Part shown: piece by piece, positions 412-20,503 of the stretch
Position numbering within the stretch: the first letter of the stretch is position 1
Layout of the letters: every line of letters begins with the position of its first letter
IMG/VR virus record: IMGVR_UViG_2713896785_000022
Span: 1 to 23,668 of that record
DNA length: 23,668 nucleotides
DNA from: a virus
Taxonomy: Duplodnaviria; Heunggongvirae; Uroviricota; Caudoviricetes
Reading direction: 5' to 3' (one strand)
Position numbers and translations under genes: made by a program
Notes under the pieces: model-generated
Told to the model about the DNA's origin: nothing
What the model saw: only the letters and a program-made list of their open reading frames with translations
Database searches by the model: none

Positions 412-650
412 ATAGCTGCACCTGCACTGCCTGATGTCAGAACAGTATTTTGATGAATTGCCAAGGTTACAATGGCACAAATGCGGCACAGGAGGAAACG
501 TGGTGTATTTAAATATGGGGTGATAATAGGAATGAACATTACAAGTTAACACATTGATTTATAATAGATTATAATATTCAAAAAATATAACTATACACAT
601 ATCTATACACACTGCGTGCGTCGCTTGTTTTTCGCACAATTAAAAATAAG

Positions 651-952
651 AAAAAAGTTTTTTTTCGAAAGAACTGTTCACACTGTTCACATTTCTGTTT
701 TCTCCTTTTATTTCAGCATGATAGGTGGTGAATAATGGGTGAAGGGTGAACATTCGATTCTTCACCTCCGGCATTCTGCCGGTGTGACTCATACCGGTGA
801 TTAATCCCCCGTACTGAAAATCGCACAGGGAGAAAAAAGTTTTTTTTGATTTGATTGTTCACACTGTTCACCTTTCATTTTTCTCTTTTAATTTCAGTGT
901 GATAACGGGTGAATATACGGTGAAGGGTGAACAGTGGATTGTTCACCTTCGG
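651..952. repeat. P4 crr-like cis replication region: two ~120-bp direct repeats about 60 bp apart, each with TGTTCAC(C/A) octamers
   Basis: Repeat 1 (about 651-770) and repeat 2 (about 834-952) both begin AAAAAAGTTTTTTTT…TGTTCACACTGTTCAC and end …GGTGAAGGGTGAAC…TTCACC. The layout matches the known P4 crr and lies just downstream of the alpha gene. Confidence 0.7.
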
Positions 953-998
953 GGGAGGTCGGGATAAAAAAAAGACCGGCAGATGCCGGTCAGGTGGG

Positions 999-3332
999 TC
1001 AGGTTGTTGCAGGGTCGTCACATTTTGGCAGCCAGTCGCCGTAGCTTTCCTCTTTCAGTGTCAGGTTGGTCTGTATCCCCTGTTTGGTATGGCGCTTCTC
1101 GTAATTCAGTCCGTATTCCTTCAGCATCACCGGCAGCCCCAGCCCGAACATTTTCAGACTGAGTACATTCCGGTAGCCGTTTGCCTCCATGTAGGCCAGA
1201 TAGGCGTGATAGAGGTATTTACGGTAATTACGCGGGATGATACTGGCGTTCCCCATATACATGCCGCTGGTCTGCGGCAGGGTTTCCAGATAGCCGATAA
1301 AATCAAACGTCGGGTCGGCATCCCGTTTGATGTTCAGCGCCTCGTCTGAGTTCTGCTGGGACTGAAGCAGTGACCGGGCGAGCATCGGGTCGCTGAACTT
1401 CTGCATCAGGTGACGCACGATGACCGCCAGCTCGCGGGTGATTTTGTCCTTAAGCTGCGGGTCGCGCTCCTGCGGGGCTATCTGTTCCGGGAAGTGAATA
1501 ATCACCCGCCGGCGTGACACGCCGCCGCTGCGGTCGGTGAAGCGCATCGGGTTATTGTTCACGGCCAGAATTACCGCCGGGATGTGCGTGGAGTACGCAT
1601 CCCGGTATTTCGGGTCAACGGACACCGCATCGCCGCCGGTGATGGCCTTGAGTCCGGCTCCGTCGCCGCTCCATTTTTCCTGGTCCGGCAGGCGTATCAG
1701 TGAGAAGCCAGTTAACGCGGCACGTTCACGCGGGGATTCCAGCGTCTCAATGGTGGCCGACGTGGCGTTATCCTCCCCGGCCAGCAGGGTGGCTATTTCG
1801 GCCATGATACTTTTGCCGCTGCCGCCGGGACCGGTCACCTCCAGAAAGAGCTGCCAGTCGTAGCGGTTTGCCAGCACCATAAACAGTGCGGCCAGAATCA
1901 CGTCGCGTTTTTCCGCACGACCACCGGCAGCACGGTCAAGCCAGCGCCAGAACGCGGGAGCGTGGGTTTCCAGCGTTTCACCGTCCACCGGCGGGGTGAA
2001 ATCCACATCACACAGGGTACGCATCCAGTGTGACGGACTGTGCGGGTGGAACGTACCGTTCTGCGTGTCGAGCACGCCGTTACGAAAGCCAATCAGGCGG
2101 CGGGAGGGGGCTTCCTGCTGCGGAATAATCAGCTTCAGGGTGTCCACCACGGAGGCCACCTTCCCGGAGGAGAACGGCGCGCGCAGACGCTGAAACAGTC
2201 CGGCCACATCCCGGGCAAAGTCCTGTGGCGGCAGCACCTTCCAGACACCATTTTCATAACGGGACAGAAGCTGGCCGTTGGCATCAACCGCGAGCGCCTC
2301 GCCGTAATGCTCATAGATACGCATGGCCTTTTCGCTGGTACTCATGGCGGAAAACTCCGCTTCGCTCATGGTGTCGAACGGGCTTTCAGCCGGTGGCCGG
2401 ATGGCATCGTAAATGGCCTTACGGGTGGCTTCCCCGCCGTACTGCGTGAAGGCATCATTCCAGTCACCGAAGACCGGCGGCAGGGCAACAACACCTTCAC
2501 ACGCATCTGCGGCTGCGGCGGCTTTTTTCTGGCCGTCACCGCTGAGGTCACGGTCTGAGGCAAGGACAATCTGACAGGCCGGATGCTTCTGCCGGGCAAG
2601 GCTGGCCAGAGAAAGGAGGTTCACGGAAGAAAGCGCCACCATCACCGTTTCACCGGTCAGGTGATGTACGGTAAGTGCGGTCGCGTATCCCTCCGCTATC
2701 CACAGACGTTTTCCGGCCTGATTCTGTCCTTCAAGGGTGTGACAGGTGCCCCTGACCTGTCCGCCTTTCAGGGTGCGCTTACGGCCGTCAGCACTGATTA
2801 ACTGAAGGTTAACCAGTTCGCCGCTGTCGTCATACAGTGGCACCACAAGGTCACCGGCGCGCCAGCTCACGCCACCGGCTCTGTGTGTGCCGGTCAGCAT
2901 CCGGCATTCCCGGCCGGGAAAGCCCTTGCGGGTCAGGTAGGCGTTACCGGTTCCGGGACGGGTTTTTGCCATCAGGGTTTGTGCCAGTGCGGCGGCGTTC
3001 TTCCGGGCGGCTTCTGTTTCAGCAACGGCGGCGGCCGTCACTGCCGGGTCAGCCGGGGGCAGACTGCCGGTCACGGCAGCCACCTTTGCGGCCGCGTCGG
3101 ACGGGGAAACACCAAACACCTTTTCAACCAGTTTCAGGCCGTCACCGGCACCACACTGATTGCAGTACCAGGTGCCGCGCCCCTCCCTGTCATCAAAACG
3201 GAAGCGGTCACTCCCGCCACAGACCGGACAGGGCTGATGACGGTTTTTCAGCACCTGAATCCCCAGCGCCGGGAGAATACGCGGCCAGTGGCCGAGCGCA
3301 TGACTGACGGTGGCGGTTACGTTCATTTTCAT
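999..3332 (-). CDS. alpha: P4 alpha-like DNA primase/helicase (777 aa)
   Basis: N-terminal zinc-binding CPVCGG…YCNQCG primase motif, internal P-loop GPGGSGKS; length is exactly that of P4 alpha; flanked by crr. Confidence 0.9.
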   Translation of the reverse strand: MKMNVTATVSHALGHWPRILPALGIQVLKNRHQPCPVCGGSDRFRFDDREGRGTWYCNQCGAGDGLKLVEKVFGVSPSDAAAKVAAVTGSLPPADPAVTAAAVAETEAARKNAAALAQTLMAKTRPGTGNAYLTRKGFPGRECRMLTGTHRAGGVSWRAGDLVVPLYDDSGELVNLQLISADGRKRTLKGGQVRGTCHTLEGQNQAGKRLWIAEGYATALTVHHLTGETVMVALSSVNLLSLASLARQKHPACQIVLASDRDLSGDGQKKAAAAADACEGVVALPPVFGDWNDAFTQYGGEATRKAIYDAIRPPAESPFDTMSEAEFSAMSTSEKAMRIYEHYGEALAVDANGQLLSRYENGVWKVLPPQDFARDVAGLFQRLRAPFSSGKVASVVDTLKLIIPQQEAPSRRLIGFRNGVLDTQNGTFHPHSPSHWMRTLCDVDFTPPVDGETLETHAPAFWRWLDRAAGGRAEKRDVILAALFMVLANRYDWQLFLEVTGPGGSGKSIMAEIATLLAGEDNATSATIETLESPRERAALTGFSLIRLPDQEKWSGDGAGLKAITGGDAVSVDPKYRDAYSTHIPAVILAVNNNPMRFTDRSGGVSRRRVIIHFPEQIAPQERDPQLKDKITRELAVIVRHLMQKFSDPMLARSLLQSQQNSDEALNIKRDADPTFDFIGYLETLPQTSGMYMGNASIIPRNYRKYLYHAYLAYMEANGYRNVLSLKMFGLGLPVMLKEYGLNYEKRHTKQGIQTNLTLKEESYGDWLPKCDDPATT

Positions 3333-3346
3333 GGTGTAGTTCTCCT

Positions 3347-3667
3347 TCAGTGCAGTACCGGCGCTTTTATGTGACGGGCACAGAGTTCATCCATCACAAC
3401 CAGCCCGAGAAAGGACAGCGACGGCGCGGCCTTCAGGGGGCCGGATTCCATTAAATCTTCCAGCAGGGCACAGGCTATCTGACGCCCTTTTTCCTCACCG
3501 TGCTGGCGCAGATAAAAGCCTTCCAGCTCAGCGGCGATGGCCGCCTCCAGTGACTCAAGGGTGAGATGCGGGTAGCGGTGCTGACGTTCGCACACGGTCA
3601 GCCAGGCACAGGCGACAGCGCGACGGTAAAGGGCAGCGCGTAAGACGGGCGGTAAGGGTGTTTTCAT
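3347..3667 (-). CDS. P4-family conserved hypothetical protein (106 aa)
   Basis: ORF immediately upstream of alpha in the same orientation, 15-bp spacing; position matches the small ORF upstream of alpha in P4-like elements. Confidence 0.55.
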
Positions 3668-3802
3668 TTGCTTTCCTCCCTGTGACAGATGACTGCATTC
3701 TGTGCCGGTTGCATTAACTGATAAGGCATATCTGCGTCTCCTGAAGACGTGCGTATCCCTGCGCGAATACGCACATTTAATTTTTCGGGTGTCGTTTTTT
3801 AA

Positions 3803-4258
3803 TTACAGATAATTGCGGTAACTGTTATCCGGGGTGATTTCCGGGTCAGGCTCCGTGCGGGGAATTTCCCGCCATTCCCGCGCCACCGGTGCCGCCCGGC
3901 TGACCGGAACAGGGTCCTGCGGGTAAATATCCAGATATTTCTCCCGCCATTTCTGTAATTCCGGGTCTCCGGCCATTTCTTTCAGTACCGCATGCCGGTT
4001 TACGGGGCTGCGTTTGAACAGGTCAGGACGGTCACAGGTAAATTCCCGCAGAAAACGCCCCAGCGGGATGTCTGTGGTGCGCCCGTCGGCGAGGATACGC
4101 ACAAGGATACTGAATTTACGGCGGTACGGGTTCCAGACAATTTCCGGGCAGCGGTACGGCATTTCCCACGGAATACCGTCTTCCAGAATGCCGACCACGG
4201 CCACATCGGGAAAACCGGCAGAACGGTAAATCTCACCGGGCTGGGGAAAATCAAACAT
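3803..4258 (-). CDS. P4 orf151-like protein (151 aa)
   Basis: 151-aa ORF in the alpha operon; its ATG overlaps the stop of the upstream ORF (ATGTTTGA), suggesting translational coupling. Confidence 0.6.
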   Translation of the reverse strand: MFDFPQPGEIYRSAGFPDVAVVGILEDGIPWEMPYRCPEIVWNPYRRKFSILVRILADGRTTDIPLGRFLREFTCDRPDLFKRSPVNRHAVLKEMAGDPELQKWREKYLDIYPQDPVPVSRAAPVAREWREIPRTEPDPEITPDNSYRNYL

Positions 4259-4583
4259 GCGTCCTGTCTCCCCGGTCTTTCTGCTGGGCGAGAAAATCGC
4301 GGCACAGGCCTTTGGCTTTCAGTTCATTCAGCACAAAATCAATATCTTCATTCAGGTAACTGAAAATATGCGGAATGTAGAGCTGATGCAGGCCGGAGAG
4401 TTCACGGTGAATCAAATCACCCCCAACAAACTGGGATACGGCGCTGGCGCGGTTGAGCTTATGGTAAGCCTCAATGCTGAGGTGTTCACGGGCGTCATGA
4501 CGCGCTGAGACGGTCTGAGGGGGTTTTTTATTACGCACGGGACACCTCCACCACCGGCAGACGAGCAGCAAGGGAGAGCACAT
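4251..4583 (-). CDS. Hypothetical protein, possibly P4 epsilon-like; start uncertain
   Basis: C-terminal ~110 codons of the 4251..4778 ORF; stop overlaps the start of the 151-aa gene. Possible starts at 4583 or 4619, neither with a clear RBS. Confidence 0.3.
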
Positions 4584-5126
4584 AGTCACGGACAAGGGAA
4601 CGGCGGGCGCTGCGTTCATCACCGGCGACGGTGCGAAGCATACAGATACGGGGATGACGGTCTGCGCGACGGACAGCCGCAAACACAAAGACAAATTCAG
4701 GGTGTGAGGGGGTAAGGGTCGTAGCCATAAGGCAACCTCCGATAACAGCGTAAATGACGCTATCGCCGGAGTTTCCACGCTCGATGGCGATAGCCCAGAC
4801 GGGGGTGGAAATACCGGCGTTATCGGAAACCGGCCAGCCCGGAGGCTGCCCCGCCTGAGCTACCATTGACTCTGCGGTATAATGAGCGGACGCGGGCAGA
4901 ATGCACGGAGTGCCATTTGCTCGACTGACCACACACCACACCATAATCTGGCGCTCTGTGGCGTTGATTGCGACACAAAAAAAGACGCATGGCGCGTCAT
5001 ATGTCGCCGATAACATACTCGGGTTTCCACGCCCGGCTGCCGATTTTGCGGCAGCGGAAAAACTATATCCGCAAATGCCGGAAAAAGGCAAGCCAGAAAA
5101 AGGAAGTTTTTGCAGAACAGGCATCA

Positions 5127-5393
5127 TCATGCGTCGTACCCCCGTTTGCGTCCGGCAATGCGCCCGGCCATCCATGCGGTGACTTCAGAGTGCAGCCAGG
5201 CCACATTTTTACCGCCAAGACTCACCTGCGGCGGAAATTCCCCCTTACGGATGAGTTCATAGATGGTCGAGCGTGACAGGCCGCACAGGTGCATCACTTC
5301 CGGCAGACGTAAAAAACGCTCCTGCGTGATGTCCGGCAGCGGCATCAGTGGCGTCACAGGGGCGGGAGACGGGGAGGAAAAAACAGCTTGCAT
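5127..5393 (-). CDS. vis: Vis/AlpA-family excisionase-type regulator (88 aa)
   Basis: AlpA-like helix-turn-helix ([29 protein letters not shown]…[11 protein letters not shown]); 88 aa as in P4 vis; lies between the ori iterons and the alpha operon. Confidence 0.8.
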
Positions 5394-5671
5394 CGGGCTA
5401 CCTCGTTAATGTCCATACAGCACCGGATAAGTCCGTCCGGCTTCGGGTAGCGCTTTATTTTGTGAATATTTTCGGCAGACGCAACAGGGGGGATTTGTTC
5501 CGGCAGCCTTACAATGGCTGTGTATTTTTTGTACATCAGCGCCAGATAGCTTTAAAACGCTCTGGAAGGAGCTGGAAAAAATTATAGTGAAATACAAATT
5601 GTTTTTTCTTATTTATTTCAGTGAATTAATAAAAATAAAAAGTAATAAACAGCACAAAAAGCCCATCAACG

Positions 5672-5786
5672 GGTGAACAGTGGTGAACAGACGGTGAACA
5701 GTCATTACTGCGATTGTTCACCATTTAACTTACTGTATTACTTATCTTTTTTATTAAGGTGAATAGAGGTGAACAGAGGTGAACAG
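5672..5786. repeat. P4 ori-like iteron cluster (GGTGAACAG / TGTTCACC repeats)
   Basis: GGTGAACAG at 5672, 5682 and 5693; inverted TGTTCACC at 5715; GGTGAATAG at 5758; GGTGAACAG at 5768 and 5778, with an AT-rich spacer. Same octamer as in crr. Confidence 0.65.
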
Positions 5787-5864
5787 TAAAATATAAAAAA
5801 ACAAACAGTAAGCCGGTTTTTCCTGCGACCTTTTCCTGGCTTGCCGGTCTGAGGATGAGTCTCC

Positions 5865-5882
5865 TGTGTCAGGGCTGGCACA
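5865..5882 (+). promoter_or_regulatory. Candidate Delta/Ogr activator site (TGT-N12-ACA) of a Psid-like late promoter
   Basis: TGTgtcagggctggcACA lies about 70-90 bp upstream of the sid start codon, as expected for P2/P4 late promoters, which carry a TGT-N12-ACA dyad near -55. Confidence 0.4.
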
Positions 5883-5954
5883 TCTGCAATGCGTCGTGTT
5901 GTTGTCCGGTGTACGTCACAATTTTCTTAACCTGAAGTGACGAGGAGCCGGAAA

Positions 5955-6689
5955 ATGTCTGACAACACCATCCCTGAATATCTGCAACCCGCGCTGGCAC
6001 AACTGGAAAAGGCCAGAGCCGCCCATCTTGAGAACGCCCGCCTGATGGATGAGACCGTCACGGCCATTGAACGGGCAGAGCAGGAAAAAAATGCGCTGGC
6101 GCAGGCCGACGGAAACGACGCTGACGACTGGCGCACGGCCTTTCGTGCAGCCGGTGGTGTCCTGAGCGACGAGCTGAAACAGCGCCACATTGAGCGCGTG
6201 GCACGCCGGGAGCTGGTACAGGAATATGACAATCTGGCCGTGGTGCTGAATTTTGAACGTGAACGCCTGAAAGGGGCGTGTGACAGCACGGCCACCGCCT
6301 ACCGGAAGGCACATCATCACCTGCTGAGTCTGTATGCAGAGCATGAGCTGGAACACGCCCTGAATGAAACCTGTGAGGCGCTTGTCCGGGCAATGCATCT
6401 GAGCATCCAGGTACAGGAAAATCCGCTCGCCAACACCACCGGCCATCAGGGCTACGTCGCGCCGGAAAAGGCTGTCATGCAGCAGGTGAAATCATCGCTG
6501 GAACAGAAAATTAAACAGATGCAAATCAGCCTCACCGGCGAGCCGGTTCTCCGGCTGACCGGACTGTCAGCGGCAACACTCCCGCACATGGATTATGAGG
6601 TGGCAGGCACACCGGCACAGCGCAAGGTGTGGCAGGACAAAATAGACCAGCAGGGAGCAGAGCTTAAGGCCAGAGGACTGCTGTCATGA
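5955..6689 (+). CDS. sid: Sid-like capsid size-determination (external scaffold) protein (244 aa)
   Basis: ATG at 5955 with GAGGAG RBS 7 nt upstream; 244 aa as in P4 Sid; coiled-coil-rich; first gene of the sid-delta-psu block. Confidence 0.85.
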   Translation: MSDNTIPEYLQPALAQLEKARAAHLENARLMDETVTAIERAEQEKNALAQADGNDADDWRTAFRAAGGVLSDELKQRHIERVARRELVQEYDNLAVVLNFERERLKGACDSTATAYRKAHHHLLSLYAEHELEHALNETCEALVRAMHLSIQVQENPLANTTGHQGYVAPEKAVMQQVKSSLEQKIKQMQISLTGEPVLRLTGLSAATLPHMDYEVAGTPAQRKVWQDKIDQQGAELKARGLLS

Positions 6690-7186
6690 TTTACTGCCCG
6701 TCGTGTGGACATGTTGCTCACACCCGTCGCGCACATTTCATGGACGATGGCACCAAGATAATGATTGCACAGTGCCGGAATATTTATTGCTCTGCGACAT
6801 TTGAAGCGAGTGAAAGCTTTTTCTCTGACTGTAAAGATTCAGGAATGGAATACATTTCAGGCAAACAGAGATACCGCGATTCACTGACGTCAGCCTCCGG
6901 CAGTATGAAACGCCCGAAAAGAATGCTTGTTACCGGATATTGTTGTCGGAGATGTAAAGGCCTTGCACTGTCAAGAACATCGCGGCGTCTGTCTCAGGAA
7001 GTCACCGAGCGTTTTTATGTGTGCACGGATCCGGGCTGTGGTCTGGTGTTTAAAACGCTTCAGACCATCAACCGTTTCATTGTCCGCCCGGTCACACCGG
7101 ACGAACTGGCAGAAAGCCTGCATGAAAAACAGGAACTGCCGCCAGTACGGTTAAAAACACAATCATATTCGCTGCGTCTGGAATGA
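6686..7186 (+). CDS. delta: Delta-like late transcription activator (tandem Ogr-type zinc fingers, 166 aa)
   Basis: Two Ogr-like halves each with CxxC…CxxC (CPSCGH…CRNIYC and CCRRCK…CTDPGC); 166 aa as in P4 Delta; start overlaps the sid stop. Confidence 0.9.
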   Translation: MIYCPSCGHVAHTRRAHFMDDGTKIMIAQCRNIYCSATFEASESFFSDCKDSGMEYISGKQRYRDSLTSASGSMKRPKRMLVTGYCCRRCKGLALSRTSRRLSQEVTERFYVCTDPGCGLVFKTLQTINRFIVRPVTPDELAESLHEKQELPPVRLKTQSYSLRLE

Positions 7187-7259
7187 GGGCTGCCGGTTAA
7201 CACCGGCCGTCGCCGCACACCGTATTTTTATTCTTCAGCATGATGAGAAAGAGATAACG

Positions 7260-7832
7260 ATGGAAAGCACAGCCTTACAGCAGGCCTTTGACACCTGTCA
7301 GAATAACAAAGCAGCATGGCTGCAACGCAAAAATGAGCTGGCAGCGGCCGAACAGGAATACCTGCGGCTTCTGTCAGGAGAAGGCAGAAACGTCAGTCGC
7401 CTGGACGAATTACGCAATATTATCGAAGTCAGAAAATGGCAGGTGAATCAGGCCGCCGGTCGTTATATTCGTTCGCATGAAGCCGTTCAGCACATCAGCA
7501 TCCGCGACCGGCTGAATGATTTTATGCAGCAGCACGGCACAGCACTGGCGGCGGCACTGGCACCGGAGCTGATGGGCTACAGTGAGCTGACGGTCATTGC
7601 CCGAAACTGTGCCATACAGCGTGCCACAGATGCCCTGCGTGAAGCCCTTCTGTCCTGGCTTGCGAAGGGGGAAAAAATTAATTATTCCGCACAGGATAGC
7701 GACATTTTAACGACCATCGGATTCAGGCCTGACGCGGCTTCGGTGGATGACAGCCGTGAAAAATTCACCCCTGCGCAGAACATGATTTTTTCGCGTAAAA
7801 GTGCGCAACTGGCATCACGTCAGTCTGTGTAA
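7260..7832 (+). CDS. psu: Psu-like polarity suppression / capsid decoration protein (190 aa)
   Basis: 190 aa as in P4 Psu; last gene before cos in the sid-delta-psu block. Confidence 0.85.
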   Translation: MESTALQQAFDTCQNNKAAWLQRKNELAAAEQEYLRLLSGEGRNVSRLDELRNIIEVRKWQVNQAAGRYIRSHEAVQHISIRDRLNDFMQQHGTALAAALAPELMGYSELTVIARNCAIQRATDALREALLSWLAKGEKINYSAQDSDILTTIGFRPDAASVDDSREKFTPAQNMIFSRKSAQLASRQSV

Positions 7833-7996
7833 AATTCCCCGAAAATCCGCCTGTTTTTACTGAAAAAAGCCATGCATCGATAAGGTGCATAGCTTTGCAT
7901 GCGTTTCCCTGCCTCATTTTCTGCAGACCGCGCCATTCCCGGCGCAGTCTGAGCGTGTCAGTACAACTGCATTAAAACCGCCCCACAAAGCGGGCG

Positions 7997-8015
7997 GGCG
8001 AGGCGGGGAAAGCAC
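7997..8015. other. cos site: 19-nt P2/P4-type cohesive-end sequence GGCGAGGCGGGGAAAGCAC
   Basis: Exact match to the P2/P4 cohesive-end sequence as I remember it, located between psu and the cargo gene as in P4. Confidence 0.8.
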
Positions 8016-8425
8016 TGCGCGCTAAAAAGGAAATTGAAATCCAGTAACCCCAAATACCTTAGCTAAAAGAGCCTAAGGAATCTAACGCATTCAACTGTCA
8101 TAAAACATAATGTGTTACATAATGGAGATAGTGTGAAAACAACTGATATAGATCATAGAAGGCTTGGCTCCGTAAGACATCTAAGGTGTTATCTTAATCA
8201 ACTGCAGCAAAGGCATTCTGCCACTGTTAATGGAAACTTGTTTCGAATTGGATAACTTCAATGTTGCATCGTGTTTTACATATCTTGTTCAACTACAATA
8301 CATTGTTGCCTGCAAATTTAATTTTTTATTAGAATACTTGTAACTTAGTTCGCAGCATCAATTGTGTTTTTCAAACTTGATGTTAACTGATGATATGGAA
8401 CATTATTTGTTAGAAAGGTGATAAT

Positions 8426-10021
8426 GTGCAAGAACGGGATCTAGGAAGCATGGGCGAGGCATTATTTATGCAACTTTGCGCATCTGTTGGGTTAATATAC
8501 AACCCATCATTAAAAGACAGTGCTGGATGGGATTTCATTGTTGACTTCCCTACACAATTTTCAACTCACCCAATGATAGATAAAAGTGCATCCCCTATCG
8601 AGTGTAAAATTCAAGTCAAAGCAACTGATGGTACTTCAAAAAAAGTACAAATTACTTTATCAAATATGATGCGTTTATGCGGAAGTAAGCTCCCCGCTTT
8701 CTTTTTTTTCATTGAGTATAATAAAAGCAATACTCCACAAGCAGTTTATGTTAGACACTTTGATAAAAATCTAATGTTTAAAACATTACAAAGAGCCAGA
8801 GAAAACTCTATTTTAAAAGAACCCAAAAAACTGAACAAAATTAACATTACAGTATCATTTGACAGCCCCCATAAATTAGACGCAATAACAGGTGAACATT
8901 TAAAGTCTACAATTGAATCATACGTAAATGAAGGTATGGAAGTTTATACTGAAAAGAAAATAAATCACTTAAAAAATTTAGGTTATGAAAATGGAGGATA
9001 TAAATTAACTTTTCAGACAAAAGCGGAAGTTGAATACGATAATCTGATCAATGCGTCTCTTGGATGGGTTAATAAAGCGAAAGCTAGAAATATAAAGTGC
9101 TTTGACGAACGATTTAATATCTCTATGCCTCTTGAGAACAAGAGTTTTTCTGAAGCCGATTTATCGTTTGGGGTTGAAAATTTTGAAACAGATGCCATAT
9201 TGAAAATAACAAACATGACATCAAAAAAAACCATTCGCCTCGAATGTAAATTATATGTTAGTCCACTATCCATCAATGCTCCAGATAAGCATATCAAAGC
9301 AAGATTAAAATCCTCTTATTTCGACATTTTAATTTATCTTAAAACAGGACTCCTTACATATCGATTTGATTCATATGACAACATATTGAATCTATTTGAG
9401 ATCAAAGATAATTTAACCATCATGCGATGGATTTATGAACAGAAGGACATGCTGGAATTTGAAATAAATATTTCTAACAGTCATAACCCAATGACTTTAA
9501 TAACAAATGCCAATAAAGAACTAATACAAGACACCTCATTAATTGAAAGCTGTATTCAGGCATTAAATACAACAGAGAATGCTATTATTATATCTGACCG
9601 ATTAAGTATTCAGGGGCAAGTTAAGACAACTATTACAAAATTGGGTATACATAGTGATAATACTAACATAATTGGGCAATTACTAAGTAACCCAAATTAT
9701 TCCCCAGCAATGAAACTGACATCTAAGAATAAAATAAAATCACCCCCAAGTGAAATAAATGCATGTTGTTTAGCAGTTATCGCCACTAAACTAGGTGATT
9801 TTATAGTGCTTGTTATAATCACCATTAACGGAAAAGGAGTTTACTCTAAAAATGAATATCACCTGTCTAACCCCAGTATAAAATTAGAAGACATAATGTA
9901 TTGTTATCACAATGAAGATATCACAAAAAAATTAATAACAAAAACAAAATCAATAGCAGATAAACATATGAAAAGGGATGACATTGTCTTCATAAACTTA
10001 TTTCACGATGACAATAATTAG
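8426..10021 (+). CDS. Hotspot cargo gene: 531-aa protein with N-terminal DUF4365-like PD-(D/E)xK nuclease signature and unassigned C-terminal region; candidate anti-phage defence protein
   Basis: Long ORF in a strongly AT-rich segment between cos and int. GTG at 8426 (AAGGTG upstream) or ATG at 8450 (AGGAAG upstream). Motifs …KDSAGWDFIVDF… and …IECKIQVKATDG… fit the DUF4365 pattern. Followed by a strong terminator. Confidence 0.8.
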   Translation: MQERDLGSMGEALFMQLCASVGLIYNPSLKDSAGWDFIVDFPTQFSTHPMIDKSASPIECKIQVKATDGTSKKVQITLSNMMRLCGSKLPAFFFFIEYNKSNTPQAVYVRHFDKNLMFKTLQRARENSILKEPKKLNKINITVSFDSPHKLDAITGEHLKSTIESYVNEGMEVYTEKKINHLKNLGYENGGYKLTFQTKAEVEYDNLINASLGWVNKAKARNIKCFDERFNISMPLENKSFSEADLSFGVENFETDAILKITNMTSKKTIRLECKLYVSPLSINAPDKHIKARLKSSYFDILIYLKTGLLTYRFDSYDNILNLFEIKDNLTIMRWIYEQKDMLEFEINISNSHNPMTLITNANKELIQDTSLIESCIQALNTTENAIIISDRLSIQGQVKTTITKLGIHSDNTNIIGQLLSNPNYSPAMKLTSKNKIKSPPSEINACCLAVIATKLGDFIVLVIITINGKGVYSKNEYHLSNPSIKLEDIMYCYHNEDITKKLITKTKSIADKHMKRDDIVFINLFHDDNN

Positions 10022-10030
10022 TAATTTTCG

Positions 10031-10056
10031 AAGGGGCTAGCCCCTTTTCTTTTTTA
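10031..10056 (+). terminator. Rho-independent terminator after the hotspot gene
   Basis: Perfect palindrome AAGGGGCTAGCCCCTT followed by TTCTTTTTT, 10 nt after the stop codon. Confidence 0.7.
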
Positions 10057-10091
10057 TAAAAAATAAATACTAAAACTAAAAAACAATTATA

Positions 10092-11258
10092 TTAACTAAA
10101 AATATTATCTGAATACCATTGCATCATCACCTTTCGCTTTTCAAAATATTGGGCGTGATTATATGTTCCTCTTATAGAGTTTTTATCTACATGAGCAAGT
10201 TGCATTTCAATCCAAGCGGTATTAAAGCCATTTTCATGAAGAATTGTTGATAATGTATGCCTAAACCCATGTCCTGTAAGTTTTCCAGCATAGCCTATTC
10301 GTTTGATAAGTTGATTAACACTTGCCTCACTCATAGGTTTATTTGGATCATTCCGTCCAGGAAAAACATAACGATAATTTCCTGTCATAGATTTGAGTTC
10401 ATTAAGAAAGCCTAGCGCCTGCGTCGATAAGGGGACAAGGTGCGGCCTACGCATTTTCATTCTCTCAGCAGGAATTTCCCAAATAGCGTTATCTAGATCA
10501 AACTCTTGCCATAATGCTGCTCGTAACTCGATAGTTCTAACCCCCGTAACCATTAATAATTTTGTGGCAATCTGAACAAGTCGGCTTCCTGTATAACTAT
10601 CTAAAGCACGCAGAAAATCAGGTATCTCATCTGATTTTAAGAAAGGAAAATGATTTGATTTATGAACTTCAAGGGCACTGGACAGATCTGCCGCAGGATT
10701 AAACTCTGCTCTTCCAGTAGCAATGGCATATCGAAAAACCTCTGAGCAACGTTGCCGCACTTTGCGCATTTTCTCCAATGCACCACGCTTCTCAATTTTA
10801 CGCAGTACATTTAGCAATTCTAGCGGTTTAATTTCCCCTACAGGCCTCGCCCCCACATACGGAAAAATATCATTCTGGAACGCTTCAATAATATCTGAGG
10901 CATACCCAGCAGACCATTTTGCCGATTTCATCTGATGCCACTCTCTGGCAATCTTTTCGAATGCGTTCTCAGATTGAATTCTTAATGCTAGTTTTTGTTC
11001 TTTTCGAACCTCACTAGGATTTTTTCCCTCAGCCACTATTTTTCGTGCCTCATCACGGCGAGAACGAGCTTCAGCAAGTGTGATCGTTGGATAGACACCA
11101 AGCGAGATCATTTTAGGCTTACCTGCATAGCGGTAACGAAATCGCCAACTTTTACTTCCATTTGGCTCTACAAGTAAAGACAACCCTTGCCCATCCCCAA
11201 GTGTATAGGCTTTAGCTTCAGGTTTAGCACGGCGAATCTGCATATCATTTAGGGGCAT
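10092..11258 (-). CDS. int: P4-type tyrosine integrase (388 aa)
   Basis: N-terminal arm-binding domain typical of P4-family integrases (IRRAKPEAKAYTLGDGQGLSLLVEPNGSKSWRFRYRYAGKPKMISLGVYP), C-terminal catalytic region with …GHGFRHT… and …RGTYNH…; convergent with the cargo gene. Confidence 0.9.
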   Translation of the reverse strand: MPLNDMQIRRAKPEAKAYTLGDGQGLSLLVEPNGSKSWRFRYRYAGKPKMISLGVYPTITLAEARSRRDEARKIVAEGKNPSEVRKEQKLALRIQSENAFEKIAREWHQMKSAKWSAGYASDIIEAFQNDIFPYVGARPVGEIKPLELLNVLRKIEKRGALEKMRKVRQRCSEVFRYAIATGRAEFNPAADLSSALEVHKSNHFPFLKSDEIPDFLRALDSYTGSRLVQIATKLLMVTGVRTIELRAALWQEFDLDNAIWEIPAERMKMRRPHLVPLSTQALGFLNELKSMTGNYRYVFPGRNDPNKPMSEASVNQLIKRIGYAGKLTGHGFRHTLSTILHENGFNTAWIEMQLAHVDKNSIRGTYNHAQYFEKRKVMMQWYSDNIFS

Positions 11259-11583
11259 GTGTATAGAATTCCATAATCGAACAGGAACATATACATAATC
11301 CTATACACATTTAGTACTGGATTCCACTGGAAGGTTATGGACTAACATGGACAAAAAGAACAAAAAATCTTTTATAAAACAGTATGATTATGGATTAATA
11401 CGGATGTTTGAAGAAGTGGAGATGGTGCCGATAATAGGAGTAAAACACTCGATTAATCTCGTGTTAATGCCATCACCTACGACCATTACTAATTGATTGA
11501 ATCTTATAGAAAAATCATCATTTTCTATGCGTCACAATCAATTTTCACATTACAAACGCTCCGACACTTTAGCCGGAGATTTT

Positions 11584-12861
11584 ATGAGATACAAGCCTAA
11601 CCAATACTTAATCTGTGATTCTTACGGTAACTACTATTTAAGGATCACGCTGCCTGTGTATATGAAGCCCTTTTTTGAAGGAAAAAGGACGTTTGTCAGA
11701 AGTCTACATACAAGTAATCTTCGTGTGGCACGTAGAAAGCGTGATCAGATTGCAGATGAATACCATTGCTTACGGGAGAGTGTTGCCCCTGTAAACAGCA
11801 CAATAGAAAACACGCTGGAACTGTTACGCAGTAAGGCTAAATACGCCAAAACAGCTACCAGAGTGCAAGATACAGCGTCTTCGTGTCCGTCATTGCTTAA
11901 AATTCTTGAAATCTACCTGACAATTAACAGCACGAAGAAGAAGCCAGCCACTTTAGCTAAGGCAAGAAAAGCGGTAGAGATGTTTCTCTCCTACCGTAAA
12001 AAGCCTGATATTGCATTGCAAGATGTAAGCCGCACCACTGTTACAGGCTGGATTGAACACATGCAAAAAACTCTTTCACAACAATCAATTGCAAATTATA
12101 TCAGCCCAATGGCCCAGCTATGGGAATTAGCTTCATCACGTTACCACGATGCGCCAGAAAGGGCGCTCTCCCCCTGGCGAGGGCATAGGCTTGATGTGGC
12201 ACAAAGTAGAGAGAGCTACGAGGCATTTTCTAACAAAGAGCTATTGCAGGTGTTGCAAGTATTTTCCGGTAATTCAGCAGAAAACAAAGAAATGACGGCT
12301 TTGTGTCTTATCGGTTTATATACAGGTATGCGGATCAATGAGATAGCAAGTCTCACAATAGACGATGTGAAAGAGATCGAAGGTGTGCTGTGTTTTGAAA
12401 TCACACAGGGAAAAACGAAAGCTGCGGCACGTCTTGTGCCTGTGCATAGCCTTATCACTCCATTGGTGTTATCTCTTCGTGAAAAGCCTCACAATGGCTT
12501 TTTGTTCTATCACGCCAGCATTACAGAGCGTGCTGACGGTAAACGCTCTACGTGGCATACACAACGATTTACAAGAGCTAAACGAAAGGCTTTAGGGGAA
12601 AAGGGAACAGAAAGGAAAGTGTTTCATTCTCTGAGACACGGAGTAGCACAGCTTCTTGATCGAAATCAAATTCCAGAGGACCGCATAGCTTTAATGTTGG
12701 GCCATCAGCGCGGCAATACAGAAACATTCCGCACATATAGCAAGAATGCAGCTTCTCCAGTAGAGCTTAAAAAATATATTGAGCTTTTACGCTACCCTGA
12801 AATAGAGAAAGGCTTATCAATCAATAAAAAATCAAATTTAAGGCGTAAAACAACGCTATAG
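11584..12861 (+). CDS. Second tyrosine recombinase/integrase (about 425 aa; ORF could start at 11497)
   Basis: Catalytic signatures …GMRINEIASLT…, …HSLRHGVAQ…, …GHQRGNTETFRTYSK…; ATG at 11584 has a GGAGA RBS. Divergent from the P4-type int with ~325 bp between the two starts. Confidence 0.8.
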   Translation: MRYKPNQYLICDSYGNYYLRITLPVYMKPFFEGKRTFVRSLHTSNLRVARRKRDQIADEYHCLRESVAPVNSTIENTLELLRSKAKYAKTATRVQDTASSCPSLLKILEIYLTINSTKKKPATLAKARKAVEMFLSYRKKPDIALQDVSRTTVTGWIEHMQKTLSQQSIANYISPMAQLWELASSRYHDAPERALSPWRGHRLDVAQSRESYEAFSNKELLQVLQVFSGNSAENKEMTALCLIGLYTGMRINEIASLTIDDVKEIEGVLCFEITQGKTKAAARLVPVHSLITPLVLSLREKPHNGFLFYHASITERADGKRSTWHTQRFTRAKRKALGEKGTERKVFHSLRHGVAQLLDRNQIPEDRIALMLGHQRGNTETFRTYSKNAASPVELKKYIELLRYPEIEKGLSINKKSNLRRKTTL

Positions 12862-12941
12862 ACGTAATAAAGAGGCTTCAATATAGACTGATGCCTCTTT
12901 TATGATTATCTCGTTACAGAGCGTTTCATAGGCGTTTAAGG

Positions 12942-13619
12942 CTATTGTTTAAATACTGGCGTTACAACGTCTTGCCCTGGGCTTTTTTGATTTTTCTGTT
13001 CTGTTGTATTTACCTGCATTTTAACCTGTCCCCCTACAGATTTATTTGGTGCTGTTTTTACCGCAATTGCGCTTGTAGTTGCTTTAGAGACAAGACGGAT
13101 TTGCTCAAAATCAAGAGTAAACAATAGGCTTTCGCTTGCTTCTTCTTCATAAGACATGCCAACTAACACAACGTTGTCATAATTTTTTAACTCAGTGACA
13201 AGTAGGAAAGGTTGGCGACTGTCCATCAACTGATTTAGGTATTCAAGCATAAGCATACGTCGATTGCCGTTAATTCCCGCATTCTTAATCATATCGGGAT
13301 TGAGCTTCAATACGGTTTCAGAGATACGCCCTTGTAATGTGAACTTGTTATTCCGTATTTGAACATGATCACTAACTTCTGATCCTGATTCGACAGCATA
13401 GCTTGTAACGTCTGCATTTCTGCTAATTTTCGTCGATTCCACGCTATCAAATGATAATGCCTGGTAGTCATTGTAAGCAGCATTTGCACCACTGCCGAGG
13501 TTAGAGGCAATGATCGCAAAGCCGTTACCCCCTTTAGTTGTTCTACCGTTGCTATCGTTGCTTGTGCTGTTGATTTTCGCCTCAGTCGGGCGACCAATGG
13601 TTAACGGACCCATTGCCAT
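12942..13619 (-). CDS. Hypothetical protein (225 aa), possibly virion-associated
   Basis: Last gene of the leftward operon containing the capsid genes; AAGGA RBS; no recognisable motif. Confidence 0.55.
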   Translation of the reverse strand: MAMGPLTIGRPTEAKINSTSNDSNGRTTKGGNGFAIIASNLGSGANAAYNDYQALSFDSVESTKISRNADVTSYAVESGSEVSDHVQIRNNKFTLQGRISETVLKLNPDMIKNAGINGNRRMLMLEYLNQLMDSRQPFLLVTELKNYDNVVLVGMSYEEEASESLLFTLDFEQIRLVSKATTSAIAVKTAPNKSVGGQVKMQVNTTEQKNQKSPGQDVVTPVFKQ

Positions 13620-13666
13620 AATTTGTAATCCTTATTTAAGGGGGCTAAACAGCCCCACAGCGATGA

Positions 13667-15508
13667 TTAATAGGTTGACCCGCCTGACATAACACCCAGC
13701 GTTAATAGCTTGCTAAACTCAGCGGAGGATGCCTTTGATTTGAAGTCGATAAATTCGCTCAATCGTCCGGTGTCTGATTCGATAGTTAGCGGCACTTCTG
13801 CATTTACTTGTAATTCTGGATTGAAGTTAATAACAGGTGCAAAGGTGTAAGAAGGAGCCTTGAAAGCTTGTTGTGCTGCACTCTGTTTCAGATTTGCAAT
13901 GTTTTGTCCTTCGAGACTGTATTGATTTACAGCCTGCGCCCCACCTACCGTTTCTTCTGGCATAAACCAGCTTTTAATAGTGTTAACCAGGGAATTGCTG
14001 TTATCTGGCTTAATTGTTCCGGTGCCAGCGCCTTTATATTGATCAGGAGTGAGATTAGAAAGATTCTGCTTCATTCCTTCGTTAGATAGTGGCGGTGCAT
14101 CCCCTAAATTCTTTTGAATAGCTGCCGTCTTCTCGTCGTTTTTCATCAGCCAGTTGATTGCTTTCATTACAGCGTTAACCAATCCGCCGATAGCCTCGCC
14201 TAATTTGGTAAACATTGGCAGCATTGCAACCATGCTCTTTTTAAACTCTTCAATCACTTTCGGATCAAGAGATTTCATAAAGCCATCAACAAAGGCGATC
14301 CCTTGTGAGTCAGAAAGCCCACTAAGTGCATTATTCAGTTCACGGAATTTAATAACGCTTTCCTGTTGTGCCTGCGTTACCCAGCGCCCTGATTCTCGTT
14401 GTTCTCGTGCTGATTGTTCCACTTCTTTAGCGGAGCGTGTCCAGTATTTAGAGGTGAGCATCAAATCATCAGCCAGATCTTCCAGACGACTACCGATTTG
14501 TGCATCTGAATAGCCTTTAGCTACCATTCCCTGAACTGCTTTACTAACCAGACCAGCCGGATTATCAGCAAAGTCTTTTAGATCCTTTTTAGTTAGGAAT
14601 CCTTCATTCATTAAAGTATTGATGCCGCTATCGCCGCCCTTCCATTCTCCTTTACCAGTTTTCTTATCAACTACATATTCAGCCTCATCATAAGATTTAG
14701 TAGCCTTCTCCCGTACATCTTTCATCTGATCGAGATACTTACGTTTACCTTGATCCCCCATCATTGAATCAACGCCGTTTTTATACGCCCATTGCTCAAT
14801 ATTGTTCATCTGGTTAACGTCTACACCGCCCAGCTTCGCACGGCTATACAATTCTCCCAGCGTTTCAGCACTGGCAAAGCTGTTAGTAACAAATTCAGAG
14901 GCTTTGCTCATAGCCATATATGCAGCGCCAGCGCCTAAGCCACCCAGCATAACAGCCGCAGCACCGCCGCCAATACTCCCGCTACCCTTAACAGGTGCAT
15001 AGGCTTTAGCGTAAGCGTTACGATTGCCATTAATCTTACGTTGTTGCTGTTGTAGGCGTTTCATTTGGCTATTCATACGTGCCAGACTAATAGCGCCTCT
15101 TTCATATTGGAGGGCAATTTCTCTAGCCTGTGCAATAGCTTTATATTGTTCCGCTACAGAAAGACGGTGCATTGCACTAATGCTTGATCCAACGTCTAAA
15201 AGCTTTAATTCTGCCTTCTCTTTGCGTGCTGCCAGGGCTTTTTGTTCTCTTGCAACTACACGTTGAGCGGCTAATTGTGCTTTAGCATTAGCTTTATCAG
15301 CCTGTGCTTGCTTTTTAGCAATATCGTCTACGTCTTTTTTTGCTTTAGCGGTTGATTGTTTATGTGTCTTAACACGCAATTCTATATCTTTCACAGCCGC
15401 CATTTGTTTACGAAGTTTTTCTACTTCTGCTTTTGCTTTCTCTAATGATGGTCGATCAACCTGGAAGGTGACAACGTTTGATAAGCGGCTGACGGTAAGG
15501 TCTAACAT
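13667..15508 (-). CDS. 613-aa coiled-coil protein with a Gly/Ala-rich hydrophobic segment (scaffold-, tape-measure- or ejection-protein-like)
   Basis: N-terminal ~170 aa of Lys/Ala/Gln-rich heptad-like sequence, then GSGSIGGGAAAVMLGGLGAGAAYMAMS, then a long mixed region; same operon as the major capsid gene. Confidence 0.65.
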   Translation of the reverse strand: MLDLTVSRLSNVVTFQVDRPSLEKAKAEVEKLRKQMAAVKDIELRVKTHKQSTAKAKKDVDDIAKKQAQADKANAKAQLAAQRVVAREQKALAARKEKAELKLLDVGSSISAMHRLSVAEQYKAIAQAREIALQYERGAISLARMNSQMKRLQQQQRKINGNRNAYAKAYAPVKGSGSIGGGAAAVMLGGLGAGAAYMAMSKASEFVTNSFASAETLGELYSRAKLGGVDVNQMNNIEQWAYKNGVDSMMGDQGKRKYLDQMKDVREKATKSYDEAEYVVDKKTGKGEWKGGDSGINTLMNEGFLTKKDLKDFADNPAGLVSKAVQGMVAKGYSDAQIGSRLEDLADDLMLTSKYWTRSAKEVEQSAREQRESGRWVTQAQQESVIKFRELNNALSGLSDSQGIAFVDGFMKSLDPKVIEEFKKSMVAMLPMFTKLGEAIGGLVNAVMKAINWLMKNDEKTAAIQKNLGDAPPLSNEGMKQNLSNLTPDQYKGAGTGTIKPDNSNSLVNTIKSWFMPEETVGGAQAVNQYSLEGQNIANLKQSAAQQAFKAPSYTFAPVINFNPELQVNAEVPLTIESDTGRLSEFIDFKSKASSAEFSKLLTLGVMSGGSTY

Positions 15509-15542
15509 GCTAATTGTTTCCCTGTATTATGATTGTTGTTTA

Positions 15543-15740
15543 TTATTGTTTTTTAGAACAGTAGTATGTAATTGCTTCAAAAGTGCTGCACCCAGTCTGA
15601 AACACACGCTGCCGCACATTATTTGCATCAATTGAAAGCATTCTGCATAAGGCACTGACATTGATTATTGAGTCATCGCTAATAGCTGCCAGTTCTTTTA
15701 CAGATTTAAGAATTAATGCCTGTGAATTTTCTGTATTCAT
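15543..15740 (-). CDS. Small hypothetical protein (65 aa; ORF could extend to 15818)
   Basis: ATG at 15740 preceded by a GAGAGA-type RBS; lies between the capsid gene and the 613-aa gene. Confidence 0.4.
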   Translation of the reverse strand: MNTENSQALILKSVKELAAISDDSIINVSALCRMLSIDANNVRQRVFQTGCSTFEAITYYCSKKQ

Positions 15741-15894
15741 TGGTTTTCTCTCACATATATATATTTTTATTTGGGTTTGTAGACAGTAGAAAAACAAAAA
15801 GGGCAAGAGACAGCGCATATTTTGCTTATATGATTATCCCTTACCCTTATTGCCCCGATTATTTCCAGACGTAGGGGAACGTCTTTAACACTTT

Positions 15895-16923
15895 TTACGC
15901 TACTGTGATCTGCACAGAGAAGCCAACACCGTGGTTAACCACAAGCGAGCTATTCTCGGTCACTACGTGCACTGCGTCGCCGCGATTCGATTCGAAAGCA
16001 TAGCTGTAATACTCTTTAGCGCCTTGAGACAGCAGATCGAAGGAACTGGAAGGCGCGCCATAGATAGCTTGGTAAACACCTCCACCCTTAGCGAATTTAG
16101 GCACGGCTACAGCGTCAGCGGTCATATGTGCCAGCAGCAGCGGATCAGTCACTTTGATCAGATCAATGTTAGTTCCTGGAATGGTGAAAGTAGTTACGCC
16201 AGGCAGCAGAGAACGCACATTAAACACCACGTTTGCATCGTCTACAGGGCTTGCATATTGGAACGCATTGACCATGCCAACGCTGTAACGAATAGCGTTG
16301 AATGCCGCAGGTTTACAGAACACAACAACACGCTCAATGGTTGCAGCCTGGCTTTGTGCCTTAGCAATCATATCCGTATGCATCTGATCAAATTGCTTGA
16401 ATACGGTCATTGTGTTGGTGCTGGATGCGTCAACGGTTGCAGTCATTGGAGACACACCGAACAGAGTGCTGTAATCGATCAGAACATCGTCAGTTTTCGG
16501 GGTATGTGTCTTGCCAGAGAACAGAGAAGCCGCGAGGATGCTTTCTTTAGTGCGCTGGAATGCAACATTGTGTTTAGCGATATATTCCGCATACAGATCC
16601 GGCAGTGTTTCTTCAATAGAGCTTCCGGCTTTGCGTTTGCCTTGCACGTCCTGCGGTTTGATCAGGTCTTCACGCAGGAAGTAAGGGATTTCAATCAGCC
16701 ATTCTTCCCCGTTCTCACGCTTAGTAACGTTATGCTCAGAGCTAAAACGGCTTGTAGGATGGTTGAACAGAGATTCATTGCTCTCGATAAGCTGGGAAAC
16801 AGCCACTTTGTGACTTTCTACAGGCACAGGATCAGTAAAATCCAGAGTAGACAGTAGGTAATTGCGTGAGTCGTTTAATTCGAACAGTGGAGCAAGATCA
16901 ACCACTTCATTTCCGATAATCAT
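15895..16923 (-). CDS. Major capsid protein, lambda gpE-like (342 aa)
   Basis: Length matches lambda gpE (341 aa); C-terminus …GFSVQITVA resembles the gpE C-terminus as I recall it (…FVSVQLA); directly preceded by a ~118-aa gene in D-then-E order. Confidence 0.65.
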   Translation of the reverse strand: MIIGNEVVDLAPLFELNDSRNYLLSTLDFTDPVPVESHKVAVSQLIESNESLFNHPTSRFSSEHNVTKRENGEEWLIEIPYFLREDLIKPQDVQGKRKAGSSIEETLPDLYAEYIAKHNVAFQRTKESILAASLFSGKTHTPKTDDVLIDYSTLFGVSPMTATVDASSTNTMTVFKQFDQMHTDMIAKAQSQAATIERVVVFCKPAAFNAIRYSVGMVNAFQYASPVDDANVVFNVRSLLPGVTTFTIPGTNIDLIKVTDPLLLAHMTADAVAVPKFAKGGGVYQAIYGAPSSSFDLLSQGAKEYYSYAFESNRGDAVHVVTENSSLVVNHGVGFSVQITVA

Positions 16924-16939
16924 TATTATTTATTCCTTC

Positions 16940-17296
16940 TTAAGATGTGAAAACAGAGTGGAAGCCTTCAAGCTGGAAGCCTTTAGCAGCTTCTTTTACA
17001 GCGCCTTCGGCATTCAGGGCATCAGCTTTGATGCAAACGAGTCCGGCATTAGCACGAAGCACGTTAACTGTTTTATTTGAATCAGCAGTTACGAAGTCAG
17101 ACACAACGACAAGAACATCAGCGCCGCTAACATATTTAGCGCCGGATGAATCAATGAGGTCGCCGCACGTTACATCTTGTGCAAGTGCTGCAAATTTTTT
17201 GCTTTCTACAGCCGCGTAAGGGTCGGTTGCATAGCTCACTACGTCAGTGATGCTTTTACGATGTGGGAAAACATCGCTTAATTTTAAAATAGCCAT
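16940..17296 (-). CDS. Head decoration protein-like (118 aa)
   Basis: Size and position immediately upstream of the major capsid gene, as for lambda gpD; strong AAGGA RBS; the call rests on context, not sequence similarity. Confidence 0.45.
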   Translation of the reverse strand: MAILKLSDVFPHRKSITDVVSYATDPYAAVESKKFAALAQDVTCGDLIDSSGAKYVSGADVLVVVSDFVTADSNKTVNVLRANAGLVCIKADALNAEGAVKEAAKGFQLEGFHSVFTS

Positions 17297-19009: not shown

Positions 19010-19066
19010 TATTTTTCCTTTTTTGAATATTTTCATTGGGCGCTTATACATACACCCATCATTTTA

Positions 19067-19450: not shown

Positions 19451-19546
19451 TTTCCCTCTTTTTATGTGGATTATAAAAACTGAATGCCATAGTTACGATG
19501 AATATCGCCATAAATGCATTTGCCATATGTATTGCCCGATCTGTTG

Positions 19547-19816: not shown

Positions 19817-19825
19817 TTATTCTCC

Positions 19826-20452: not shown

Positions 20453-20503
20453 TAAAAATCTCCTTATAAATCACGCTTAATGCGCTACTAAAGTGAATGA
20501 GGA

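Follow-up and report, generated by a model that had tools for sequence, protein, structure and literature searches.

The stretch of DNA analysed here (hereafter the window) covers positions 1 to 23,668 of the Caudoviricetes record IMGVR_UViG_2713896785_000022 of IMG/VR, at its full length of 23,668 nucleotides (nt). Its left half (514-11441; 10,928 nt, or 10.9 kb, from att to att) holds, in all probability, an apparently functional P4-like phage satellite at the thrW attachment core, where another integrative element, hereafter element B, stands in tandem with it. Satellites of this type are present in a large share of Escherichia coli genomes and combine a conserved hijacking core with exchanged integrases and with defence cargo next to cos. 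The window is 99.99% identical to the chromosome of E. coli 2013C-3264 (NZ_CP027544.1, 4143779-4167444, reverse strand), with only two single-base differences, both in homopolymers (an extra C at 10850 and an extra G at 13640). On one side the chromosomal neighbours are paoD and a truncated LysR gene (yagP remnant, 73-411), on the other thrW-proA-proB, i.e., the thrW integration hotspot, which holds CP4-6 in K-12. ARAGORN found no tRNA gene in the window, and the intact tRNA-Thr gene (thrW) was located through the RefSeq record about 630 nt past its right end.

From crr to cos the satellite aligns with phage P4 (NC_001609 / X51522). By megablast and blastn, positions 652-7996 match P4 4291-11624 at 97.3% nucleotide identity over 7.35 kb, and positions 7997-8025 match P4 1-29, which pairs position 7996 with P4 11624 and position 7997 with P4 base 1. 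Because these two stretches match opposite ends of the P4 genome, those ends are joined here at cos, as expected of a prophage. The nine core open reading frames (ORFs) have the same lengths as their P4 counterparts, no internal stops and 89-100% amino acid (aa) identity; alpha, ORF106, ORF151, vis, sid, delta and psu lie at 97.6-100%, and the part of the 199-aa ORF equivalent to the P4 'cI' ORF at 89.1%. A first-pass annotation, made from the sequence alone, had described a P4-family satellite at 450-11450 with every landmark in P4 order (crr, alpha, the 106- and 151-aa ORFs, vis, ori iterons, sid/delta/psu, exact cos, cargo slot and int). All these landmarks were recovered in that order, the alignment is collinear from crr to cos, and the proposed extent is very close to the one now set by the att copies; epsilon, the CI/C4 RNA and its target (5016-5068 according to Rfam) are also present and can be added to that list. 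The crr, ori and att repeats were recovered independently by an unbiased repeat search, and the flank of cos is also about 90% like that of P2-like phages.

The seven components that define P4-like satellites (de Sousa & Rocha; SatelliteFinder 'Type A'), namely integrase, psu, delta, sid, alpA (vis), epsilon/ash and alpha, are all encoded, each by a full-length ORF that has the fitting Pfam domains, 97.6-99.2% aa identity to its P4 protein, or both. Their order (int - hotspot - psu/delta/sid - alpA - epsilon - alpha) and the size of about 10-11 kb are those of P4-like elements, and a P2-type cos packaging site lies between psu and the hotspot. From crr to cos, the core would be expected to act as in P4, with alpha-driven replication from ori/crr, CI-RNA immunity, derepression of a P2-type helper by epsilon and its transactivation by delta, small capsids directed by Sid and decorated by Psu, and packaging at cos by the helper terminase. 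We infer that the satellite is mobilisable. The coordinates of all features, including those of element B, are collected in Table 1.

Table 1. Features of the P4-like satellite and of the adjoining element B (positions in the window).
Feature	Position	Strand	Basis or remark
Distal att copy, left end of satellite	514..533	.	Degenerate thrW 3'-end core TATGGGGTGATAATAGGAAT; pattern search and repeat family
crr, two 120-nt direct repeats with type-1 iterons	652..952 (652-771, 833-952)	+	Aligns to P4 4291-4590; P4 annotation; repeat search
alpha, primase-helicase, 777 aa	999..3332	-	99.1% aa vs P4; Pfam Zn_Ribbon_Prim, Toprim_3, D5_N, DUF5906, Pox_D5
ORF106	3347..3667	-	100% aa vs P4 ORF106; Pfam DUF5375
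ORF151	3803..4258	-	98.0% aa vs P4 ORF151
epsilon, helper derepression protein, 95 aa	4251..4538	-	97.9% aa vs P4; Pfam Derepression
Immunity/left-operon leader; 199-aa Ash/Icd-like ORF overlapping CI RNA and target	4531..5130	-	Pfam Phage_ASH; RefSeq: Icd-like protein
CI immunity RNA (C4 antisense RNA family)	4783..4870	-	Rfam RF01695, 77.9 bits vs gathering score 45, full-length model
CI/C4 RNA targets (c4-a1b1) and isrK-type RNA in left-operon leader	4978..5068	-	Rfam RF03163 51.5 bits, RF01394 74.7 bits
vis/alpA, excisionase and regulator, 88 aa	5127..5393	-	98.9% aa vs P4 ORF88; Pfam Phage_AlpA
ori iterons, type-1 repeats GGTGAACA/TGTTCACC	5672..5787	.	Pattern at 5672, 5682, 5693, 5715, 5768, 5778; repeat search; equivalent to P4 9310-9413
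sid, capsid size determination, 244 aa	5955..6689	+	99.2% aa vs P4 Sid
delta, transactivator of helper late genes, 166 aa	6686..7186	+	97.6% aa vs P4 Delta; Pfam Ogr_Delta, two stretches
psu, polarity suppression and capsid decoration, 190 aa	7260..7832	+	98.9% aa vs P4 Psu
cos, 19-nt cohesive-end sequence GGCGAGGCGGGGAAAGCAC	7997..8015	+	Exact match to P4 bases 1-19
Variable cargo slot (P4 defence hotspot), 32% GC	8026..10091	+	Similarity to other thrW P4-likes ends at 8025 and restarts at 10092
Cargo gene, 531 aa, candidate single-gene anti-phage system	8426..10021	+	DREN/DUF4365-type PD-(D/E)xK nuclease N-domain, about residues 1-135
Terminator-like hairpin and T-run between convergent cargo and int	10030..10047	+	
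int, thrW-specific P4-type tyrosine integrase, 388 aa, intact in window	10092..11258	-	Full-length Pfam Arm-DNA-bind_3, Phage_int_M, Phage_integrase
tRNA-proximal att copy, right end of satellite, shared with element B	11422..11441	.	Exact 20-nt copy of thrW 3' end (ATGGTGCCGATAATAGGAGT)
Element B integrase, divergent, DUF6538 N-terminus	11584-12861		
Element B Dit-like tail protein	12942-13619		
Element B tape-measure-like protein, 613 aa	13667-15508		
Element B lambda-gpE-type major capsid protein	15895-16923		
Element B helix-turn-helix (HTH)/replication-initiator-like protein, 208 aa	19826-20452		
Element B serine recombinase	22408-22965		

The ends of the satellite are placed at 514 and 11441 because of the two att copies and the comparison with strains 00-3076 and G3/10, which carry the same element. 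The right-hand copy, made of the last 19 nt of thrW and one downstream base, lies between the start of the P4-type int and the second, divergent integrase gene. At the left end, the sequence shared with the G3/10 element begins with the second base (515) of the distal copy; in both 00-3076 and G3/10 this copy reads ATGGTGC-GATAATAGGAAT. The element is the sole insert in 00-3076, abutting an intact tRNA-Thr gene; it likewise lies against thrW in G3/10, with a CP4-6-type element on its far side, and in the present strain element B is placed between the satellite and thrW. Repeats derived from a tRNA 3' end flank an element that abuts intact thrW in three other strains, int adjoining tRNA-Thr in 00-3076, G3/10 and ST2350. 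The Int protein is 39% identical to that of P4, whose chromosomal site is leuX. As a separate observation at this end of the window, positions 1-521 (yagP remnant to att copy) are 99.2% identical to the final 521 nt in the record of Escherichia phage phi458 (OP434518), annotated there as 'tail assembly protein'; the phi458 record probably includes host DNA adjoining a thrW att site.

The slot between cos and int is headed by a 400-nt AT-rich leader (8026-8425), which is followed by a single ORF with a GTG start at 8426 and the Shine-Dalgarno-like AAAGGTGA upstream. Of 5426 complete E. coli genomes, 9 carry this slot content. Three unrelated cargos are seen in the slot at this same site, which is the behaviour of variable hotspot cargo in the sense of Rousset et al. 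(2022).

The N-terminal domain of the 531-aa cargo product has a PD-(D/E)xK fold with a conserved D...(E/Q)xK motif. The best Foldseek matches of this nuclease fold are the DREN chains of SPARDA (E 4e-6, probability 1.0), and the D36/Q63/K65 residues (D..QxK triad) are invariant in 19 homologues. One homologue is named DUF4365 in UniRef. The family is large: a word-indexed search gave 24 homologue clusters, and an HMMER scan of 1.84 billion representatives gave 2269 clusters (50% identity, E<=1e-3), 1371 of them at E<=1e-30; among the best 150 of these 2269, nearly all are full length (about 510-540 aa). Homologues occupy the P4 slot in other genera (loci L008 and L011), and a 38%-identical one (P0009; L010 10001-11945) is the immediate neighbour of a phage portal gene, an arrangement like that of the cos-adjacent hotspot published for P2-like phages; satellites and helpers thus both seem to carry the family in their hotspots. 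In a Rahnella island (L005), another homologue has AbiTii and an AAA_15 protein as neighbours, and a further one lies at the end of another integrative element (L006).

From this location and domain content, we consider it slightly more probable than not that the cargo product is a stand-alone anti-phage effector, and our best inference is a single-gene, nuclease-based defence, probably acting by abortive infection. Several results weigh against this reading. The protein has no above-threshold match in Pfam, PADLOC, NCBIfam or PHROGs, and none of the PADLOC-DB v2 protein models matches it at E<=0.01. Alignment profiles of the full-length protein or of the N-domain found no match among PDB sequences, even at E<=10. 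Pfam DUF4365 (PF14280) does not match the protein of the window, and 8 of the 19 homologues match it below threshold, with a best E of 0.0011. The C-terminal residues 186-531 (346 aa), when modelled alone, gave no structural match among solved structures, no recognised fold and no clue to a sensor. Finally, the copy in G3/10 (L004 12106-15191, equivalent to window 8056-10021) has an IS5 between cos and the cargo gene and a C-to-T change introducing a stop at codon 229, and because it is inactivated there the cargo is dispensable. A DREN-APAZ-like architecture over the full length, to which the Foldseek matches might point as they span whole chains, was rejected: since TM-scores are only 0.16-0.25, the rest of the protein does not superpose on DREN-APAZ, and the C-terminal model has no APAZ match.

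The gene could instead encode another kind of nuclease, such as a satellite toxin or addiction module, a factor interfering with the P2 helper, or an enzyme processing satellite DNA. We hold this to be a real but less probable alternative, against which several points can be set. The cargo occupies a slot where 7 of 19 loci tested (18 systems and the canonical P4 gene set) gave phage resistance (PMC9122126), and where 6 of 8 randomly chosen loci of unknown function protected against phages (PMC13586616). Members of its family turn up in P4 slots, next to a portal gene as in the published P2 hotspot, and within a defence island; the slot contains no partner gene (antitoxin), and the nuclease domain is of the type used as immune effector by SPARDA.

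If the cargo product is a defence effector, its DREN-type nuclease domain (D36/Q63/K65) would stay inactive until the C-terminal region senses infection; this region would then drive oligomerisation, which would release a non-specific DNase activity and lead to abortive infection. To our knowledge, DREN-type collateral nucleases have so far been described as immune effectors only when coupled to a short Argonaute. We propose, tentatively and with less assurance than for a defence role as such, that the cargo may be the founding example of a large stand-alone anti-phage family, in which a DREN-type collateral nuclease would be switched on via oligomerisation by a C-terminal region that has no relatives among solved structures and would be an infection sensor of a new type. 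For DREN itself, the catalytic residues are D41/Q60/K62 and the nuclease is activated by tetramerisation (PMC12205087).

The two parts of the satellite differ strongly in distribution. Among the 5426 genomes, the sid-delta-psu block is present at >=99% identity in 428 and at >=95% in 1072, versus only nine for this int (>=99%) and for this cargo, the same nine for both. The thrW P4-like element of CUVET24-CCU22 (L007) has a core about 98% identical to that of the window, an int body only 76-87% identical and an unrelated cargo, made of a reverse transcriptase (RNA-directed DNA polymerase) gene and a hypothetical gene; similarity between the two stops at 8025, and identity is back to 92-99% at the 5' end of int and at att. 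In ST2350 (L013), a 93.8%-identical int at thrW is accompanied by an unrelated HEPN cargo, which indicates that int and cargo are not one unit. In 00-3076, the stretch from the 3' part of psu through cos and cargo to int is common to both elements at 99.2%, and the delta/psu segment is replaced. These comparisons support a history of the int/cargo end that differs from that of the alpha-to-psu core. The first-pass annotation had suggested that int and cargo were acquired together and apart from the core: the separate history stands (39% identical Int, thrW site, 428 versus 9 genomes, breaks with CUVET24-CCU22), whereas the single block does not, given ST2350 and 00-3076. This agrees with the published explanation by a cos-adjacent defence hotspot and frequent integrase exchange (PMC9122126; bioRxiv 10.1101/2021.03.30.437493). 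Indeed, the int phylogeny is uncorrelated with those of Psu, Sid and Delta, with Spearman coefficients of 0.01-0.16 (bioRxiv 10.1101/2021.03.30.437493), and the slot from psu/cos to int is the P4 defence hotspot (PMC9122126), a picture extended in PMC13586616.

Strain 00-3076 also deserves mention for its late genes. It has a short single-domain delta of 81 aa and a different psu 5' end (L003 10971-11803, equivalent to window 6809-7274), and therefore recombination has also taken place within the late operon. This genome also contains another P4-like element, with 99.8% identity to the window across the sid-psu block.

Base composition had been the original argument for a separate acquisition. 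The contrast noticed by eye is confirmed, with 55.3% GC at 652-8025 against 34.9% at 8026-11441 (z = 19.7), and GC at third codon positions follows it, with 70% for alpha against 27% for the cargo and 30% for int. The GC content drops in the first 100 nt past cos. Host flanks have 51-54% GC, and element B and the junctions are AT-rich (33-40% GC). In reference P4, however, the segment from crr to cos has 55.4% GC and gop-beta-cII-int-attP 39.5%. Because canonical P4 has the same split, it is a family-wide layout and not an event in this element, and the contrast no longer serves as evidence of acquisition by this satellite; more generally, such a contrast inside a P4-like element is normal for the family and should not be taken as a sign of a recent event.

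One might go further and attribute the AT-rich end to function or selection in place, through H-NS silencing of costly genes or a general AT-richness of defence genes and P4-type integrases, and not to separate acquisition. The split of canonical P4, the AT-richness of element B and of the junctions, and the presence of unrelated cargos in the same slot of other strains all fit such a view. It nevertheless seems unlikely as a replacement for exchange, for which there is direct evidence in the unrelated cargos and divergent int bodies (76-87%) of elements with about 98% identical cores, in the sharp breakpoints at 8025 and about 11141, and in the genome counts of 428 for the core and 9 for the end. 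Moreover, the two are compatible, as the end may be AT-rich by nature and also exchanged.

The satellite had also been called complete, and this holds with qualifications. All landmarks are present, and the core ORFs and int are intact in the window, but the distal att copy is imperfect and int is 1 nt shorter in RefSeq. Two points thus count against full function. Between the distal and proximal att copies there are 3 substitutions and one indel, and the distal copy has two substitutions more than those of 00-3076 and G3/10, which casts doubt on the efficiency of excision. In the RefSeq record of the same strain (NZ_CP027544.1), the CCCCC run at 10846-10850 lacks one C, which leads to a frameshifted annotation of int, so that the excision competence of this strain is not assured. 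For the window itself, a frameshifted int was considered and rejected: the alignment shows a 1-nt homopolymer difference, and the ORF is open over its full 388 aa and 100% identical to int in four other genomes. The differences at 10850 (CCCCC) and 13640 (GGGGG) probably stem from misread homopolymers in either the window or the RefSeq sequence. That the element would be a decaying, immobile P4 remnant (cryptic prophage) fixed in the thrW island, as its degenerate distal att copy, the RefSeq frameshift, its position behind a second element and not beside the tRNA gene, and the decay of related copies (frameshifted alpha, ORF106 and icd in ST2350; only a psu fragment and a split int at locus L008) might suggest, is improbable in view of nine core ORFs and an int that are open and full length, of an int identical to that of four other genomes with a RefSeq difference of a single homopolymer base, and of the recent mobility implied by the occurrence of the same element with another neighbour in G3/10, at 99.7% identity, and alone at thrW in 00-3076.

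Next to the satellite, element B is a second integrative element at the same thrW core; it occupies 11442-23668 and reaches thrW about 630 nt past the window. Besides the genes listed in Table 1 it carries small ORFs, and neither the ORFs searched nor the RefSeq annotation include a portal, terminase or protease; element B is a remnant, or else a minimal and unusual phage-like island. Its structural block is covered to at least 80% in only 34 of the 5426 genomes. Two AT-rich stretches, 17506-18497 (about 1.0 kb) and 20876-22407 (about 1.5 kb), have no ORF of at least 60 aa and no Rfam match. Positions from about 20115 to 20683, spanning the 5' portion of the gene for the 208-aa HTH protein together with a short ORF upstream of it, are 95.7-98.3% identical at the DNA level to the roughly 147-kb Escherichia phages inny (MN850601, Justusliebigvirus; inny_184/185) and muut, which we take to be virulent. 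This near-identity to large phages suggests a recent exchange, and may hint that element B interacts with phages of the inny/muut type.

Compared with known systems, the satellite is an element of a known kind, and its locus is already in a published catalogue. It shares with P4 the collinear series crr-alpha-ORF106-ORF151-epsilon-CI RNA-vis-ori-sid-delta-psu-cos, with an exact cos and equal protein lengths. It is not phage P4 itself: bases 30-4290 of P4, which comprise gop-beta-cII, int and attP, have no DNA match here and are replaced by one 531-aa gene and the 39%-identical integrase, and the att core, which is the thrW 3' end (TGGTGCCGATAATAGGAGT), begins like the P4 attP core (TGGTGCCGAAGGCCGGACTC) and then diverges. 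The closest relatives are the thrW P4-like elements of 00-3076, G3/10, CUVET24-CCU22 and ST2350, which have the same site and gene order and cores 96-99.7% identical. In 00-3076 and G3/10 the cargo and int are also shared at >=99%, and the differences lie in the 81-aa delta and other psu start of the former and in the knocked-out cargo and CP4-6-type neighbour of the latter, whereas CUVET24-CCU22 and ST2350 carry unrelated cargos (reverse transcriptase and hypothetical; HEPN). The locus is thus a clean example of a conserved P4 core with exchangeable integrase and cargo.

Regarding the cargo, system 15 'DUF4365/PDDEXK_5' of Rousset et al. (2022; Table S1B, PMC9122126) is the same protein, its sequence starting at M9 of the cargo ORF. 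This system was recorded there at 82 loci with the comment 'N-terminal nuclease domain', and NZ_CP027544 / WP_001157928 is among the loci of Table S1A. PMC9122126 catalogues system 15, DUF4365 is absent from its main text, and no report of testing was found. The named new systems of PMC13586616 (Crouga, Bandua, Aernus, Toga, Reve and Hailong) have domain contents unlike that of the cargo. With SPARDA DREN-APAZ (PDB 9jt2, 9jsz, 9qcc, 9vx6), the cargo shares the nuclease fold, D36/Q63/K65 matching D41/Q60/K62 of DREN, and both N-domains resemble I-Ssp6803I; unlike SPARDA, it has no sequence-level match, no APAZ-like C-terminal match and no adjacent Argonaute gene. A further likeness, by description, is to Divona, reported as a single-gene phage defence from a Vibrio chromosomal integron cassette in which an N-terminal DUF4365 nuclease is fused to crr6 (PF08847) (bioRxiv 10.1101/2024.07.02.601686): both are single-gene, and crr6 was not found in the cargo. 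Recorded at 82 loci in 2022 and represented by over 2000 protein clusters in public data, the cargo gene is a frequent hotspot gene and a good candidate for a new single-gene nuclease defence system.

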